Positions 2,426 through 8,753 of a DNA stretch of 64,000 nucleotides are shown here, one piece after another. The stretch comes from Chitinophaga pinensis (lineage in GTDB: Bacteria; Bacteroidota; Bacteroidia; UBA4408): positions 146,403 through 210,402 of the forward strand of contig CAMAVS010000001.1 in NCBI GenBank assembly GCA_945861665.1, given 5' to 3'. A model generated the notes under the pieces. It saw only the letters and a list, made by a program, of their open reading frames with translations, made no database searches and had not been told where the DNA came from. Positions within the stretch are counted from its first letter, which is position 1; each line of letters begins with the position of its first letter. The position numbers and the translations under genes are program-made.

Positions 2426-4114
2426 TTATCCGTTCATTGAAATTAAGAACTCTTCGTTCGATTGTGTATTTTTCATTCTATCGCGTAAAAACTCCATAGC
2501 TTCTACAGGATTCATATCAGCTAAATGCTTACGCAATATCCACAAGCGTTGTAATTGATCCTTATCCAACAATAAATCATCTCTGCGGGTACTAGATGCA
2601 ACAATATCGATAGCAGGGAAAATTCTTTTGTTAGATAATTTTCTGTCCAATTGTAATTCCATATTACCTGTTCCTTTAAACTCTTCAAAAATAACCTCAT
2701 CCATTTTCGAACCTGTTTCAGTAAGGGCTGTTGCAAGAATAGTAAGTGAACCACCATTTTCTATTTTACGTGCTGCACCAAAAAAGCGTTTTGGTTTGTG
2801 CAATGCGTTGGCATCAACACCACCCGACAATACTTTTCCGGAAGCAGGTTGTACAGTGTTATAAGCACGTGCCAAACGTGTAATTGAATCTAACAATATA
2901 CACACATCGTGACCACACTCCACCATTCGTTTTGCTTTTTCAAGAACAAGATTTGCAATTTTAACGTGTCTATCAGCGGGCTCATCAAAAGTAGATGAAA
3001 CAACTTCAGCCTTCACATTTCTTGACATTTCTGTTACCTCTTCCGGACGTTCATCTATCAACAATATTATTAAATAAACCTCAGGGTGATTTGCAGCAAT
3101 TGCATTTGCAACTTCTTGCAATAACAAGGTCTTACCTGTTTTTGGTTGCGCCACAATTAAACCTCTTTGTCCTTTACCAATAGGAGTAAACATATCCATA
3201 ATACGAGTAGATAAACTACTCATCGGTTTATTTCCAGTAAGATTAAATTTTTGGTATGGAAATAATGGAGTTAAGTAATCGAAAGGAACTCTATCGCGTA
3301 CAAAAGAAGGTTCGCGTCCATTTATTTTTTCCACTTTTACTAAAGGAAAATATTTCTCACCTTCTTTGGGAGGACGGACTGTTCCGGTAACAGTATCGCC
3401 TGTTTTTAAACCAAACAACTTTATTTGCGATTGTGATACATAAATATCATCGGGTGAATTAAGGTAATTATAATCGGATGAACGTAAAAAACCGTAACCA
3501 TCGGGCATACTTTCCAACACACCTTCGGCATTTATCGATGTATCAAAACTGTATACAGGTTCAGGCTTTTTTTCGTATGGATTTTTGTATTTGGGTGGCT
3601 GAACACCAATGTCTTTTTTATCACCTTGCTGAATTTGCTCATCTGTTGTTTGTTCCTTAGTTATTTCAGACGACCGCTGTTCAACCGGAGCACTCTCTGC
3701 ATTCGGTTGATTTACTTGTTCATTTGAAACAACTTCCTTTTCCTCTATATTGTTGATATTTTCAAACAAGGTAGGTGTTTCAATTCCTACAGTTGCATCT
3801 TGCTGTTCAGCAATATTTGCAATTATTTCATTTTCGGAAGCAGTCGCAACGTCCTCAATTATTGGAGCCTGTTCAGCAGAAACATCTTTTGGCTTTCTCG
3901 GACGCAATATTCGGTTTGGTTTACTCTCAACTTTGTAAGGGTGGGATTCATTAATGCCATTTTCTATTTTAGAATTATCGGTAGAATTCAACTCAAGTAT
4001 TTTATTAATAAGATCTTGTTTTTTTAAGGCTTCGTAATTTTCGATGTTAAGTTGCCTCGCAATTTCTTTAAGTTCGCCAACAAGTTTGTTGTTCAAGTCT
4101 GGATTCTCGTACAT
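2426..4114 (-). CDS. rho: Transcription termination factor Rho with long N-terminal insertion
   Basis: Rho_N ([12 protein letters not shown]), DGYGFLR RNA-binding motif, P-loop [25 protein letters not shown]. Confidence 0.98.
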
Positions 4115-4321: not shown

Positions 4322-4600
4322 TTAAATTGTTACTGTTTGATTTAAATAAGGAATAGTGGCATCCCAACCATATACTTCCTTTATTTTATCATTCAACCCG
4401 ATTGAACTGTTCTTCTCTCCGTGTACAATAAAAATTTGTGATGGCTTAGAATCAAGGTTAGAAAGCCATTCTATAAGTCCTTTATGATCAGCGTGTGAAG
4501 ACAATCCTTCGATATTTTCAACTTTAGCCTTTACTTTATAAAATTTACCATACAGCCTAATTTCCTCTGCCCCTGAGAGTAATGCCATACCCCTGCGACT
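4322..4600 (-). pseudogene. 3' fragment of an MBL-fold beta-CASP/RMMBL nuclease gene
   Basis: RGMALLSGAEEIRLYGKFYKVKAKVENIEGLSSHAD...VHGE is the beta-CASP C-terminus. No HxHxDH domain is present, and upstream codons to 4750 look unrelated. Confidence 0.8.
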
Positions 4601-4735
4601 ATATAAAGAAATAAAGATTGCAGTACTTCCTCTTCCCTGAAGGATTAAGGTATAATAAGGGAAGTGACACCGTTCGAACCACAAAATACAATTCGGTATT
4701 TTTATGGTTAGCACTCCAACGGCAGAATTTGGAGC

Positions 4736-4777
4736 AAAAAAATGCGGCATACCAAGTTTAAATCTTGACTATGCCGC
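4736..4777 (-). terminator. Intrinsic terminator of tRNA-Met
   Basis: GCGGCATA (4744-4751)/TATGCCGC (4770-4777) stem with inner CAAG/CTTG, followed by a 7-T run on the minus strand. Confidence 0.8.
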
Positions 4778-4779
4778 TT

Positions 4780-4856
4780 TGGTAGCGGAGACGGGAGTTG
4801 AACCCGTGACCTCAGGGTTATGAATCCTGCGCTCTAACCATCTGAGCTACCCCGCC
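4780..4856 (-). tRNA. tRNA-Met (CAT), elongator type, CCA encoded
   Basis: Reverse complement is GGCGGGGTAGCTCAGATGGTTAGAGCGCAGGATTCATAACCCTGAGGTCACGGGTTCAACTCCCGTCTCCGCTACCA; full cloverleaf with paired first base pair (not initiator). Confidence 0.95.
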
Positions 4857-4874
4857 ATTTTGTGTTTTGGGTCG

Positions 4875-4882
4875 CAAATATA
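4875..4882 (-). promoter_or_regulatory. Bacteroidota sigma70 -7 element for tRNA-Met
   Basis: TATATTTG on the minus strand just upstream of the tRNA; matches TAnnTTTG. Confidence 0.7.
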
Positions 4883-5016
4883 GTATATTATAATTTATTT
4901 TTTTGCACCCAAACAAAGTGAAATCGTAAAATATGTTAAGAAAAATCCTATAATTTGCTTTTTTTAAACAAATATATTTATATTGCAAGCGTAAAACACA
5001 TTCTCATAAAAATACA

Positions 5017-6090
5017 ATGGCAAAAAAAAATATTAAAGCAGTAAAAACAAAAGTTTCTGTTTCCAAAAAGAATACTGCGAAAAAAGTTGTTAAAAAAGCC
5101 GCTCCGGTAAAGAAAAAAGTAGCTCCTAAAAGAATTGTAAAGAAAGCCGCTCCGGTAAAGAAAAAAGTAGCTCCTAAAAGAATTGTAAAGAAAGCAGCAA
5201 CGGTGAAAAAAAAAGCTATTTCTAAGTCTTTAAAAAAGATTGTATCAAAAAAAATTATTAAAAAAATAGCTACTAAAAGGACGAATAAACGAATAAAAAA
5301 AACAAGTCCTAAAAAAGCAATAGTAAAACCTGTAATAAAAAAATTATTACTAAAAGTAAATACAAAAAAGGAAGTTGCACCAAAGAAAGTAGTTAAACAA
5401 CCTATTCTGCAAACTACTACAGTTAAAAAAGCACTAGAAAAAGAAACACCTAAAAGCATTCCACCTACTACAAACAAAGTAAAACCGGGTTCCCCTAAAA
5501 GAGGCAGAAAAAAGAAAAACAAAGACGATGAGGAGGACGGTTTTGACACAGATCCTGCTATTGAACTGGAAATTGAAATGCTAAGGGCAAAAAAAAGAAA
5601 AAAGAATGATGGACCAAAAATAATAAGAACACCACTTGTTATTCACCTGGGTTTAGAAGATAAAGAAATTGATTATGCTAAATTAGTTAAGAACACATCG
5701 GCTCCAAAAGGAAAGCTTAGGAAATTTGAACTAGAATTTACGATTAACGCATCCATAAAATTTTTATTCCCATTTTTCCTTACCCCAAGTGAGTTAGCCG
5801 ACTGGTTTGCTGACGATGTAGATATCAAAGGAGACCAATACACATTCTTCTGGGATGGCAGCAAACAAGTAGCTAAATTGGTTGCAAAAAAAGAAAATCA
5901 CTTTGTTCGATTTAAGTGGATTGATGAGCCCGACAATACCTATTTTGAATTTAGGTTGGAAGTTGACGAAATTACAAAGGATGTTGCCTTGATTATTTCT
6001 GATTTTGCGGAAGATCAAGAATCACGCGAAGCATCCACATTACTTTGGAATAACCAAGTACAAAAATTAATGCACGTAATTGGTGCATAA
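5017..6090 (+). CDS. Histone H1-like Lys/Ala/Pro-rich region fused to C-terminal START-like (SRPBCC) domain
   Basis: 48 Lys in the first 128 aa by my count. C-terminal FELEFTINAS...TPSELADWFADDV...FFWDGS...VRFKW matches the Bacteroidota START-like domain. Single uninterrupted ORF. Confidence 0.8.
   Translation: MAKKNIKAVKTKVSVSKKNTAKKVVKKAAPVKKKVAPKRIVKKAAPVKKKVAPKRIVKKAATVKKKAISKSLKKIVSKKIIKKIATKRTNKRIKKTSPKKAIVKPVIKKLLLKVNTKKEVAPKKVVKQPILQTTTVKKALEKETPKSIPPTTNKVKPGSPKRGRKKKNKDDEEDGFDTDPAIELEIEMLRAKKRKKNDGPKIIRTPLVIHLGLEDKEIDYAKLVKNTSAPKGKLRKFELEFTINASIKFLFPFFLTPSELADWFADDVDIKGDQYTFFWDGSKQVAKLVAKKENHFVRFKWIDEPDNTYFEFRLEVDEITKDVALIISDFAEDQESREASTLLWNNQVQKLMHVIGA
5095..5217 (+). repeat. 48-bp tandem repeat, about 2.5 copies (KAAPVKKKVAPKRIVK)
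   Basis: 5095-5142 and 5143-5190 are identical; a diverged partial third copy starts at 5191. Confidence 0.95.
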
Positions 6091-6104
6091 AAAGCAATAG
6101 TGCT

Positions 6105-7541
6105 TTGAAAAAAATCACAAAGCTTGTTTTAAAATCTTACTTAGGACCATTTATCAGCACCTTCGTTATTGTACTGTTCATACTTGTTATGCAATTTGTA
6201 TGGAAATACGTTGACGACTTTGTTGGAAAGGGGCTTGAGATGAAATTGCTTGGAGAACTTTTATGCTTTGCTGCTGTAAGTTTTGTTCCCCTGGCATTGC
6301 CACTAGCAATTCTACTTTCATCTATTATGACTTTCGGGAATTTAGGAGAACGCTATGAATTAACTGCACTTAAATCATCGGGGGTATCCTTACAGCGCAT
6401 TATGAGGCCACTAATTATAACGAGTGCTATAATTAGCGTATTAGCTTTTTTGTTTTCAAACTATGTTTCACCTATTGCCAACCTAAAAATGGGCACTTTA
6501 CTTTTTGATATTCGTGAACAAAAACCGGCATTTGATTTAAAGGAAGGTGTATTTTATAATGGCATCGACAACTATATAATTCGTGTTGAGAACAAAGAAG
6601 CGGATGGACAAACCGTAAAAAACATAATGATATACGACCACAGAAACAGAGATGGCTCAACGGATTTAACAATGGCACAAAGTGGAAAACTTGAAATGTC
6701 GGAAGACAAAAACACAATGCATATAAATTTGTATGAGGGAAGTCAATACAAAGAAATAAAATCAGAAGGCCAACGAAAATCGGTTTACCCTTTTCAACGA
6801 CAACGTTTTAAAAGTATGTTCATTGATATTGACATGAGCGGATTTAACCTCAGCCGCTCAAAAGAAGAACTATTTAAAGACAATTATCAAATGCTGAATA
6901 TTAAACAATTGTCGGCTGAAATTGACACACAAAATACAAAATCGGCTGAAATAAAAGAAGGTTTTAAAAAGCAGGTTATTAAAAATATGAATTTCGAAAA
7001 AAAAATTATTGTTAACACCAACAATAAAAACACAACACAGTTGGTACACAAAAAAAACTTCCTTAAAAATTTTACCAAAATAGAAATGCTAAGGATAATA
7101 GAAACTGCAACAAATATTTCACGTAGTAATAAATCGTATATTGAATCATCCGTGAATATGTTAGAAGGAATGCAAAATAGTACCAATAAGTATGAGATTG
7201 AATGGCACAAAAAAATTGCACTTTCATTTGCTTGCTTCTTGTTATTTTTCATTGGAGCACCATTAGGCGCTATTATTCGTAAAGGAGGACTTGGTATGCC
7301 AGTTGTTGTTTCAGTTCTATTCTTTTTATTGTTTCACGTACTTTCCATATCAGGCGAAAAAATGGCAAATGAAGGTGCACTTCCATTATGGCAAGGGGTA
7401 TGGCTGGCTTCAGCAATCATATTACCAATCGGTATATTTTTAACTTACAAAGCAACGCGCGATTCATCTTTATTTGACTTTGAAAGTTATATTGCCCCAA
7501 TTAAAAAGCTATTTAGCAAAAAAAATGTGTCTACAACCTAA
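6105..7541 (+). CDS. LptF/LptG family LPS export permease
   Basis: PLALPLAILLSSIMTFGNLGERYELTALKSSGVSL and IGAPLGAIIRKGG motifs; TTG start. Confidence 0.92.
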   Translation: MKKITKLVLKSYLGPFISTFVIVLFILVMQFVWKYVDDFVGKGLEMKLLGELLCFAAVSFVPLALPLAILLSSIMTFGNLGERYELTALKSSGVSLQRIMRPLIITSAIISVLAFLFSNYVSPIANLKMGTLLFDIREQKPAFDLKEGVFYNGIDNYIIRVENKEADGQTVKNIMIYDHRNRDGSTDLTMAQSGKLEMSEDKNTMHINLYEGSQYKEIKSEGQRKSVYPFQRQRFKSMFIDIDMSGFNLSRSKEELFKDNYQMLNIKQLSAEIDTQNTKSAEIKEGFKKQVIKNMNFEKKIIVNTNNKNTTQLVHKKNFLKNFTKIEMLRIIETATNISRSNKSYIESSVNMLEGMQNSTNKYEIEWHKKIALSFACFLLFFIGAPLGAIIRKGGLGMPVVVSVLFFLLFHVLSISGEKMANEGALPLWQGVWLASAIILPIGIFLTYKATRDSSLFDFESYIAPIKKLFSKKNVSTT

Positions 7542-7577: not shown

Positions 7578-8753
7578 GTGAAGCTGCTCATTATTTTATC
7601 GCGTGTACCCTACCCTCTTGAAAAAGGAGATAAATTGAGAGCATTTCATCAACTAAAACATCTTGCTGAGAAGCATGAAGTAAGCTTAGTTTGTTTAAAT
7701 GACGTTGATTTACACCCTGAAGCAAAAGAAGTATTAAACAAAATTTGCTCTGAAGTACACATTGTTCAACTCGGTAAATTCCAAATTGCTTTCAATTTAT
7801 TAAAAGGACTATTTTCTATAAAACCCTTTCAAGTATGCTATTTTTATTCTAAAAGAGCTCAATTATTAATTGACTCACTTATTCAAAAACAGCAGCCTGA
7901 ACATATTTACTGTCAGCTAATACGCACCACAGAATATGTTAAAAAGCATACGCAAATTTCAAAAACTCTCGACTATATGGATGCTCTGTCAAAGGGTATT
8001 GAACGTAGAATTTACAAGGCGAACTGGCTTTTTAAGCAAATCCTTAGATTGGAATACAAGCGACTTTACTACTATGAACAATATATATTTCCATTTTTCA
8101 CTAACAAAACCATTATTTCGCAACAGGATAGGGAATTGATTAACCATCCTCAAAAAAATAGCATTGAAATTATTGCGAATGGGGTTGATGCATCTTTTTT
8201 AAACTACCCAAATAAAGAGGAGAAAAAATATGATTTACTTTTTAGTGGAAATATGTCCTATCCGCCCAATGTTGAAAGTGCAATTTACATTGTAGAAGAA
8301 ATACTTCCACTCGTAAAAAAACAAATTCCGAATATTCATTTAATGATTGCAGGAACAAGCCCTACAAGTAAAATAATGGCATTGCGTTCAGATACTGTTC
8401 TGGTAAGTGGATGGGTAAAGAATATAAAGGAAATTTATGCAAATTCAAAAATTGTAATTGCACCTATGCAAACAGGTACCGGGTTACAAAACAAACTATT
8501 GGAAGCAATGGCAATGAGTATACCCTGTATAAGTTCTGCAATGGCTAATAATGCTTTAAAGGCTCGTCACAATGAAAGTATTTTGGTAGCTGAAACACCT
8601 ACCGAATATGCCGACTTTATTGTTGAATTAATGAACAATAAAAAAAAGGCAAACGATATCGGAAAAAATGGCAAAAACTTTGTTTCAATTAACTATGGAT
8701 GGAATACTATGAACACCAAGTTAGAGAATATAATGAGACAATCCCAACGATAG
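7578..8753 (+). CDS. Glycosyltransferase family 4 (GT-B)
   Basis: SRVPYPLEKGDKLR N-terminus; FSGNMSYPPN and GTGLQNKLLEAMAM C-terminal GT4 motif. Confidence 0.88.
   Translation: MKLLIILSRVPYPLEKGDKLRAFHQLKHLAEKHEVSLVCLNDVDLHPEAKEVLNKICSEVHIVQLGKFQIAFNLLKGLFSIKPFQVCYFYSKRAQLLIDSLIQKQQPEHIYCQLIRTTEYVKKHTQISKTLDYMDALSKGIERRIYKANWLFKQILRLEYKRLYYYEQYIFPFFTNKTIISQQDRELINHPQKNSIEIIANGVDASFLNYPNKEEKKYDLLFSGNMSYPPNVESAIYIVEEILPLVKKQIPNIHLMIAGTSPTSKIMALRSDTVLVSGWVKNIKEIYANSKIVIAPMQTGTGLQNKLLEAMAMSIPCISSAMANNALKARHNESILVAETPTEYADFIVELMNNKKKANDIGKNGKNFVSINYGWNTMNTKLENIMRQSQR

Follow-up and report, generated by a model that had tools for sequence, protein, structure and literature searches.

Gene and protein at the locus

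The stretch of DNA analyzed here, hereafter the window, comprises 64,000 nucleotides from an uncultured lake Bacteroidota bacterium (contig CAMAVS010000001.1 of assembly GCA_945861665.1). The gene under study is a plus-strand open reading frame (ORF) that begins with ATG at position 5017 and encodes a 357-aa protein (Table 1). A reading of this DNA made from its letters only, which we call the sequence-only reading, had described it as a histone H1-like polycationic region fused to a START-like domain. A single translated fusion of a START-like domain with a tail that is H1-like in composition is borne out by the ORF itself, by Pfam, by the ratio of nonsynonymous to synonymous substitution rates (dN/dS), and by RNA contigs.

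Table 1. Features at the START_2 fusion locus, in window coordinates.
Feature	Position	Strand	Content or evidence
Whole ORF	5017..6090	+	Lys-rich tail, conserved linker and START_2 domain, 357 aa
Polycationic disordered tail, aa 1-160	5017..5496	+	Composition; AlphaFold2; dN/dS
Tandem repeat array, 48-bp period (16 aa, KKAAPVKKKVAPKRIV), 2.8 copies	5080..5215	+	Tandem Repeats Finder, 89% matches
Conserved linker, aa 161-234	5497..5718	+	Alignments, dN/dS, AlphaFold2 helix
START_2 (PF19569) helix-grip domain, net charge -9	5719..6087	+	Pfam, PDB 2LIO, AlphaFold2, Foldseek
LptF/LptG-family lipopolysaccharide (LPS) export permease, TTG start, 15 bp after the START_2 stop	6105..7541	+	Pfam LptF_LptG E = 9.5e-82, full profile
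Glycosyltransferase family 4 (GT4) gene, third gene of the unit	7578..8753	+	Pfam Glyco_trans_1_4, Glycos_transf_1
Upstream intergenic region, presumed promoter region, A-rich right before the ATG	4857..5016	+	Adjoins tRNA-Met; RNA contigs start near 5022
tRNA-Met (CAT), bounds the transcription unit upstream	4780..4856	-	ARAGORN

The first 128 residues contain 48 Lys and 4 Arg against one Glu and no Asp, so that a recount agrees with the 48 Lys and one acidic residue reported from the letters, and the patches PKRGRKKK, DDEEDGFDTD and RAKKRKK that had been listed alongside are each located in the protein. Across the tail the composition is K 34%, V 13%, A 10%, P 8%, I 8% and D plus E 2%, and residues 1-234 carry a net charge of +60, as against -9 for the C-terminal 123 residues. 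The tail has the Lys/Ala/Pro-rich low-complexity repeats of bacterial H1-like proteins, with an unusually high share of Val and Ile; Val, Ile and Leu together make up 25% of it, in a KKxxKK-type periodicity. It falls short of membership in Pfam HC2 (PF07382), scoring 11.1 bits against a cut-off of 40 (E = 0.43). A Pfam search with the tail alone gave nothing beyond this sub-threshold match and Rio2_N noise, and a 60-aa tail fragment gave nothing. Judged by these scores, the likeness of the tail to Hc2-type proteins is compositional, not homologous. The AT-hook core R-G-R-P is absent, the 357-aa protein having KRGRKKK and the family consensus K.GRKPK, and no NCBIfam model matches the protein. 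AlphaFold2, run on an 82-sequence alignment, predicts the tail to be disordered, with a predicted local distance difference test score (pLDDT) of ~50 and no secondary structure. Read from its sequence, the protein has no hydrophobic N-terminal segment or signal peptide, and should therefore be cytoplasmic.

Residues 235-357 match Pfam START_2 over profile positions 5-126 of 126 (E = 1.2e-39; 135.5 bits against a cut-off of 23.6). AlphaFold2 models this region with a pLDDT of ~90 as seven strands and a C-terminal helix (residues 334-355), which is a helix-grip fold. The closest solved structure, BfR322 of B. fragilis (PDB 2LIO; E = 1e-19 over aa 234-356), is also the best Foldseek match (probability 1.00), followed by bacterial Aha1/AHSA1-like SRPBCC structural-genomics proteins (probability 1.00) and also by CERT-START-like and PR-10 proteins. 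The 357-aa protein is a bona fide member of START_2, within the SRPBCC/Bet v1-like superfamily. Its homologs come in long forms, which carry an N-terminal extension, and short forms, which do not; the domain is acidic in both alike, with a mean net charge of ~-10.5, and its invariant residues are W263, F264, F277, W279, W301, W344, E240, E311, D317 and D329.

The anatomy of the long forms was read from alignments of 22 and 82 of them. Their tails begin M-[AS]-K-K and are otherwise hypervariable in length and sequence. The linker follows the consensus K.GRKPK..DDDEPE..D.LIE.I..TKK....PKIIKTFVNP..SL....PKKEPKG and reads PKRGRKKKNKDDEEDGFDTDPAIELEIEMLRAKKRKKNDGPKIIRTP in the window protein, where a basic PKRGRKKKNK is followed by the acidic DDEEDGFDTD, a helix predicted by AlphaFold2 at aa 180-192, and PKIIRTP...APKGK. 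One 209-aa relative has the linker and lacks the long tail.

Coding status and transcription

The reference for dN/dS was the 353-aa ortholog of a same-genus species (L013). Against it, the tail has a dN/dS of 0.19, the linker 0.015 and the START domain 0.037, at dS values of 0.93-1.5, which are near saturation, and all indels are in frame. By these estimates the entire ORF is under purifying selection, with the linker as its most constrained part. Residues 161-187, which lie upstream of the sole internal ATG (M188), are 100% identical between the two same-genus species; M188 itself is not conserved among other homologs, and in 85 of 212 long forms no Met other than the first precedes the START domain. 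An internal start at M188 was rejected in view of this upstream conservation and of dN/dS, and a chance open frame in A-rich DNA is ruled out both because the Lys-rich N-extension is kept in hundreds of homologs, at loci of 33-49% G+C, and because the frame is under purifying selection. By a wide margin, the sequence is best read as translated from the first ATG. We would like to note that a minus-strand ORF at 5004-5549 (181 aa, Phe-rich) was rejected as a gene, being the mirror image of the AAA-rich Lys codons.

RNA contigs from four lake metatranscriptomes cover the gene at 5022-5124, 5118-5596, 5175-6147 and 5295-5928, with the tail-coding and START regions joined on the same contigs, and others, at 5736-6230 and 6149-6351, extend up to lptF or into it. 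The placement of the gene at the head of a unit with lptF and the GT4 gene, proposed from the letters, is supported in that RNA contigs cross the START-lptF junction. Word depth is greater over ORF 5017-6090 than over lptF and the GT4 gene, a figure taken from assembler contigs and indicative only. The Bacteroidota -7 promoter motif, TAnnTTTG, has no exact plus-strand match in 4857-5700; the window holds 115 matches in total, with 110 expected.

Seven A-runs of 7-9 bases lie in the ORF upstream of the START domain. The RNA contigs of one metatranscriptome (X28) have one extra A in the A8 run at 5589-5596, in the linker-coding part, and one in an A7 run of lptF (7202-7208), neither of which was seen in the other RNA or DNA runs; these extra bases could reflect transcriptional slippage, a strain variant or a library artefact.

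Repeat number and length alleles

A perfect 48-bp duplication had been noticed in the Lys-rich part, and it is present as a 53-bp exact direct repeat, the longest found (5095-5147 = 5143-5195), with a 48-bp period. Variation of repeat length between strains, which had been predicted from these identical copies, is found among very close strains. The 90%-identity cluster of the protein holds 357-aa alleles identical to that of the window on 13 contigs, plus an R92Q variant, and 341-aa alleles that lack exactly one 16-aa unit, in R92, Q92 and other backgrounds, on 11 contigs from several samples. Taken together, the two length classes come from 25 contigs and many samples, as read from assembled contigs and not from raw reads, and the 341-aa contigs differ from the window by ~0.2% elsewhere. 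A difference of exactly one unit between alleles is the kind of repeat-number polymorphism known from H1-like proteins.

We also looked at the repeat in Logan unitigs of eight lake DNA runs. No contig spanning the repeat with a 48-bp deletion was found in these runs, in which the unitigs break at the repeat, and copy number can only be estimated there from k-mer depth. Unitigs over the junction of copies 1 and 2 (5118-5172, or 5118-5175 or 5118-5195 where merged with flanking repeat) are present in 6 of the 8 runs. A junction unitig from 5118 arises only from alleles with at least two copies; the other two runs hold a diverged strain whose unitigs are also broken in the repeat. In one run (X1) the junction depth is 0.56 and the repeat depth 1.45 of that of the flanks, which suggests that one- and two-copy alleles occur there in about equal shares; in another (X7) the same two ratios are ~1.2 and 2.2. 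Since the alleles are consistent across independent MEGAHIT assemblies and with these depth ratios, a real copy-number polymorphism of the 48-bp repeat is likely. Species of the same genus have lengths of 357, 353 and 349 aa, with in-frame indels in this part of the tail. The tail evolves fast via in-frame gain and loss of repeats.

Distribution in Bacteroidia

A word-indexed search with the full protein retrieved at least 259 START_2 proteins of 237-473 aa, and the N-extension was ~30% Lys in all 120 of these long proteins that were inspected. In an unbiased HMMER scan of 1.84 billion cluster representatives, for which only the START domain was the query, 992 matched; among the best 150 of these, 105 exceed 200 aa and 115 have an N-extension of at least 30 aa, in which Lys makes up a median of 29%. 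In GTDB species genomes, the long form (260-474 aa) was seen in metagenome-assembled genomes (MAGs) labelled Bacteroidota, Bacteroidia, Chitinophaga and Sphingobacteriaceae, and the Flavobacteriales, Bacteroidales and Marinilabiliales have a form of 125-130 aa. The family is present in 259 of 301 Bacteroidia genomes drawn, and among the 150 matches listed from that draw, 44 (~30%) lie in open frames of 270-530 aa, under roughly a dozen family codes.

Mapped onto a START-domain tree, the long or short state changes 13 times, as against 68 with shuffled labels, and at least two changes are forced by well-supported branches; going by this tree, the state is phylogenetically clustered. Tail length varies from 108 to 349 aa across the family, with a net charge around +50. 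Three genera of the window's own family have the short form, which means that the tail was lost there, and lptF still lies downstream. Among 80 named loci, no cultured carrier of the long form was identified.

The fusion is thus no peculiarity of one genome, as it might have seemed from the window only: it makes up the majority of the nearest family representatives and the share of the listed Bacteroidia matches given above. The sequence-only reading had given a stand-alone protein of ~130 aa as the usual form next to lptF, which holds for the cultured orders Flavobacteriales, Bacteroidales and Marinilabiliales but not elsewhere, where the fusion is standard. It had also allowed that the fusion might already be a common, described architecture. 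Common it is, but our search of the literature on PF19569, START-like proteins with LptF, and Lys-rich Bacteroidota nucleoid proteins found no paper describing the fusion or the family. We regard the fusion as a common, apparently unstudied architecture.

Other lysine-rich tails in the genome

All ORFs of the 2.49-Mb genome were scanned for Lys-dense windows, which yielded four relevant proteins, the START_2 fusion included. The second, a 317-aa protein (contig C2, plus strand, from 83941), joins a Lys-rich H1-like N-terminal tail of ~170 aa to a DksA/TraR C4 zinc finger (zf-dskA_traR, PF01258; 28.8 bits against a cut-off of 24.9). The third is TopA (contig C5, minus strand, 808 aa), with a Lys-rich C-terminus of ~50 aa, and the fourth a Thx-like small ribosomal protein (contig C4, plus strand, 138756; 87 aa) with a K/A/P-rich C-terminal extension, whose match to PF17070 (27.8 bits) is just under the cut-off. 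The START_2 and DksA-like tails are nearly equal in composition (K 34 vs 37%, V 13 vs 15%, I 8 vs 7%). No shared DNA was found between the tails of different genes in the genome, and the idea that the tails are recently exchanged cassettes was ruled out for want of any common DNA.

A set of 41 related genomes was compared, 25 of them from the window's family. Every one of these 25 has a long DksA-like frame, as have several other families, and no genome in the set has a long START form unless its DksA-like protein is long too. Over the genomes compared, the Lys-rich tail is a trait of the lineage and not specific to START_2.

Gene neighborhood

The start of lptF is best placed at TTG 6105, from which the full Pfam profile matches from residue 7. 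Public calls in sister strains start it at an ATG 84 nt later (450 aa), with an apparent gap of 98 instead of 15 bp. With NCBIfam models the product scores higher as LptF than as LptG, both below cut-off.

The neighborhood was scanned at 95 loci, for which the window and three annotated contigs supplied the query proteins. On the same strand, START_2 is next followed by the gene for LptF/G at 43 of them and by that for a PAP2 phosphatase at 21 (64 of 95 together), PAP2 often being followed by PMT_2 (ArnT-like), GT2 and LptF. A convergent gene for an LpxL-like lipid A acyltransferase is present at 3 of the 95, and a GT4 gene lies downstream of lptF at 16 loci. PAP2, PMT_2 and GT2 are the usual toolkit of lipid A dephosphorylation and glycosylation, from the LpxE/LpxF and ArnC/ArnT families. 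Adjacency to LPS genes is seen with short and long forms and in several orders; the Flavobacteriaceae and some Sphingobacteriaceae-like lineages are without it. By way of example, in Chitinophagales-like MAGs a long START_2 gene heads a cluster of PAP2, PMT_2 (ArnT-like), GT2 and LptF beside TamB (L094, 6001-11698), and in another lineage a long START_2 gene is convergent with that of an LpxL-like lipid A acyltransferase (L095, 6001-7667).

This is the operon-like adjacency, across orders, that a proposed accessory component of lipid A/LPS biology would show, and because the gene order is conserved we tie the START_2 core to lipid A/LPS biology. The conserved order is a stronger functional lead than the fold alone. 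We could map START_2 to none of the six unassigned partners in a preprint on the B. thetaiotaomicron Lpt interactome.

Proposed function and alternatives

Our preferred reading, a tentative one that stops short of being probable, is that the tail is a portable polyanion-binding element, most likely for nucleic acid, carried by an LPS-linked cytoplasmic START-like module; it is drawn by analogy. The ancestral core would have been a cytoplasmic, strongly acidic Aha1/START-like domain of ~125 aa, genetically tied to lipid A/LPS genes, which in about a dozen families would have gained a disordered N-terminal tail rich in Lys, Ala, Val and Pro, and in the window's clade a tightly conserved basic-acidic-helical linker would have been added between the two. 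The tail would act as a generic, sequence-nonspecific binder of polyanions, most likely nucleoid DNA (or RNA), in the manner of DdbA, PhaF, AlgP, Ku and actinobacterial TopA (see below), and such binding might enrich the START module at the nucleoid or keep it sequestered there. The linker, which sets an acidic patch beside the basic tail and includes an amphipathic helix, could be a short partner-docking or autoregulatory motif, and the START core would keep the LPS-related cytoplasmic role that it may have in short-form lineages. Nucleic-acid binding is favored mainly because the DksA-like, TopA and Thx-like proteins of the same genome carry such tails.

Several points weigh against this reading. 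Binding by the tail rests on analogy for every member of the family, and the tail misses the Hc2 model (11 bits against a cut-off of 40). It is also richer in Val, Ile and Leu than the classic alanine-lysine-proline (AKP) tails, which would be compatible with amphipathic membrane binding as well. The three tail-less genera keep lptF downstream, so that the core role does not depend on the tail, and the neighboring genes suggest the envelope and not DNA. The nearest structures, 2LIO among them, have no known ligand or partner, and the strict linker motif occurs in just 56 of 212 long forms, other long-form clades being without it. The sequence-only reading had suggested a ligand-responsive nucleoid protein or a polycation that binds LPS or polyphosphate; LPS binding gains indirect support from the conserved lipid A/LPS neighbors, but a protein with no signal peptide should be cytoplasmic.

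In a rival reading the tail, polybasic and partly amphipathic (e.g., SLKKIVSKKIIKKIATK), would be an anchor on the anionic cytoplasmic leaflet or on nascent lipid A, and would keep the START module close to LptB2FG and to the enzymes that modify lipid A, at the inner membrane. The conserved same-strand neighbors (LptF, or PAP2/PMT_2/GT2 and then LptF), the convergent LpxL-like gene, co-transcription of the fusion gene with lptF, and the 25% Val, Ile and Leu in KKxxKK-type periodicity all fit such an anchor, as do the CERT-START-like and PR-10 neighbors in Foldseek, START/SRPBCC folds being common binders of lipids. We nevertheless consider it unlikely: tails of like composition sit on the DksA-like protein, TopA and the Thx-like protein, none of which is a membrane protein, the short-form lineages retain the LPS context with no tail at all, and AlphaFold2 gives the tail no helices.

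The same variability that marks the tail could be taken to mean that it has no specific partner, and is a neutral or generic low-complexity expansion, an "entropic bristle" or a tag for solubility or abundance, spread by replication slippage. Its length and sequence vary widely, it has been lost in some genera of the same family, repeats are gained and lost between near-identical strains, and similar tails occur on several unrelated proteins of the genome. With a tail dN/dS of 0.19 and not ~1, a Lys content steady at ~30% across loci of 33-49% G+C, a long state kept over deep phylogeny, and an extremely conserved linker adjoining, we think that this explanation is quite improbable.

Association with polyphosphate (polyP) granules, in which the tail would bind polyP and position the protein or the granules, is suggested by the H1-like, Lys-rich AlgP, which is found at such granules and spaces them (PMC9239181), and polyP storage is plausible in an organism of lake water. 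There are no polyP genes near the locus, and we give this option little weight. Finally, that only a START product is made, from M188 (ATG 5578) or later, with the Lys-rich frame as an untranslated A-rich leader, is scarcely credible: an ATG does stand in frame there, and start sites are hard to call in Bacteroidota, which lack strong Shine-Dalgarno signals, but the residues before an unconserved M188 show no change even though synonymous sites are saturated, dN/dS is lowest in the linker, many long forms have no internal Met, and the frame is kept open in hundreds of lineages.

A further-reaching proposal, which we put forward as doubtful, is that START_2 is an unrecognized cytoplasmic factor of lipid A/LPS biogenesis or export that in about a dozen families uses its H1-like tail and docking linker as a tether to the nucleoid or another polyanion. 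If so, START_2 might be, e.g., a carrier of lipid A precursors or a regulator of LptB2FG or of the lipid A-modifying enzymes, and the tether would couple envelope lipid export to the state of the chromosome or of growth. LPS transport and lipid A remodeling are less understood in Bacteroidota than in Proteobacteria. Reports of new proteins associated with Lpt continue to appear (PMC13692018), and START_2, a small cytoplasmic protein encoded beside lptF or beside lipid A-modifying genes across several orders, is a concrete candidate for a factor still missing. The independent tails on the DksA-like factor, TopA and Thx hint at a lineage-wide "polycationic tail" system for sub-cellular organization, and tailed, tail-less and tail-lost lineages offer a natural comparison for the function of the tail. 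The value of the finding lies in a well-defined family to test, and not in something unique to one genome.

Other genes in the window

Two further genes of the window are mentioned for completeness. In the minus-strand ORF at 4322-4750 (142 aa), which sister strains also have in this short form, the one domain match is to the C-terminal RMMBL (aa 71-134), and the N-terminal half resembles non-coding junk. The ORF is probably what is left of a truncated RNase of the metallo-beta-lactamase fold. The Rho factor (2426-4114, minus strand, 562 aa) has an Asn/Glu/Gln-rich insert of ~155 aa between its Rho_N and RNA-binding domains, a large disordered insertion of the sort typical of Bacteroidota Rho.

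Comparison with known systems

The nearest known relatives are the short START_2 proteins, of which BfR322 (PDB 2LIO) has the homologous acidic globular domain, likewise with no signal peptide, and in many lineages lptF follows the gene. The short proteins, BfR322 included, are functionally uncharacterized structural-genomics targets of 125-136 aa and differ in lacking the 234-aa tail and linker.

For the tail, the START_2 fusion resembles, by analogy, the H1-like tail fusions DdbA, PhaF, AlgP, Ku and TopA, with the addition of a length polymorphism of the Hc2 type. In Streptomyces DdbA an H1-like domain, described as DNA-binding, is fused to a DksA-like domain (PMC3643593). The two proteins share a Lys-rich H1-like N-terminal tail on a small globular regulatory domain, and differ in that DdbA has a DksA-like partner in place of START_2 and belongs to another phylum, and in that DNA binding was shown for DdbA and is an analogy for the START_2 fusion. 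The tailed zf-dskA_traR protein of the window's genome is a direct Bacteroidota analog of DdbA. The Pseudomonas putida phasin PhaF binds the nucleoid through an H1-like AKP tail (PMC7590123), and P. aeruginosa AlgP, H1-like and Lys-rich, localizes to the polyP granules mentioned above. Both are similar to the START_2 fusion in being built of two functional parts, one for a hydrophobic or other cellular structure and the other an H1-like tail, and in their low-complexity Lys repeats. In contrast, their tail is C-terminal and they have no START fold, whereas the START_2 fusion has its tail at the N-terminus, with more Val and Ile in it.

Chlamydia Hc2 (hctB) is a Lys-rich repeat protein whose length varies between strains with the number of repeat units (PMC2848022). 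The START_2 fusion is like it in both respects, but Hc2 is a stand-alone DNA condenser, and its Pfam model is unmatched by the fusion. Lysine repeats stabilize the enzyme-DNA complex in actinobacterial TopA (PMC5714199), and the PAKKA repeats of mycobacterial Ku form a Lys-rich tail that raises DNA affinity (PMC3553676). These are, similar to the case described here, lineage-specific Lys-rich tails on conserved proteins, and the TopA of the window's genome is also Lys-tailed; their hosts are DNA enzymes, whereas the START_2 host domain stands in a context of envelope-lipid genes. H1-like polycationic modules, best known in Actinobacteria, Pseudomonas and Chlamydia, are by this comparison also widespread in Bacteroidia, on several unrelated proteins. 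Given the known H1-like tails, the fusion itself is unsurprising, and the leads that it offers are the LPS context, the constrained linker and the lineage-wide set of tailed proteins.

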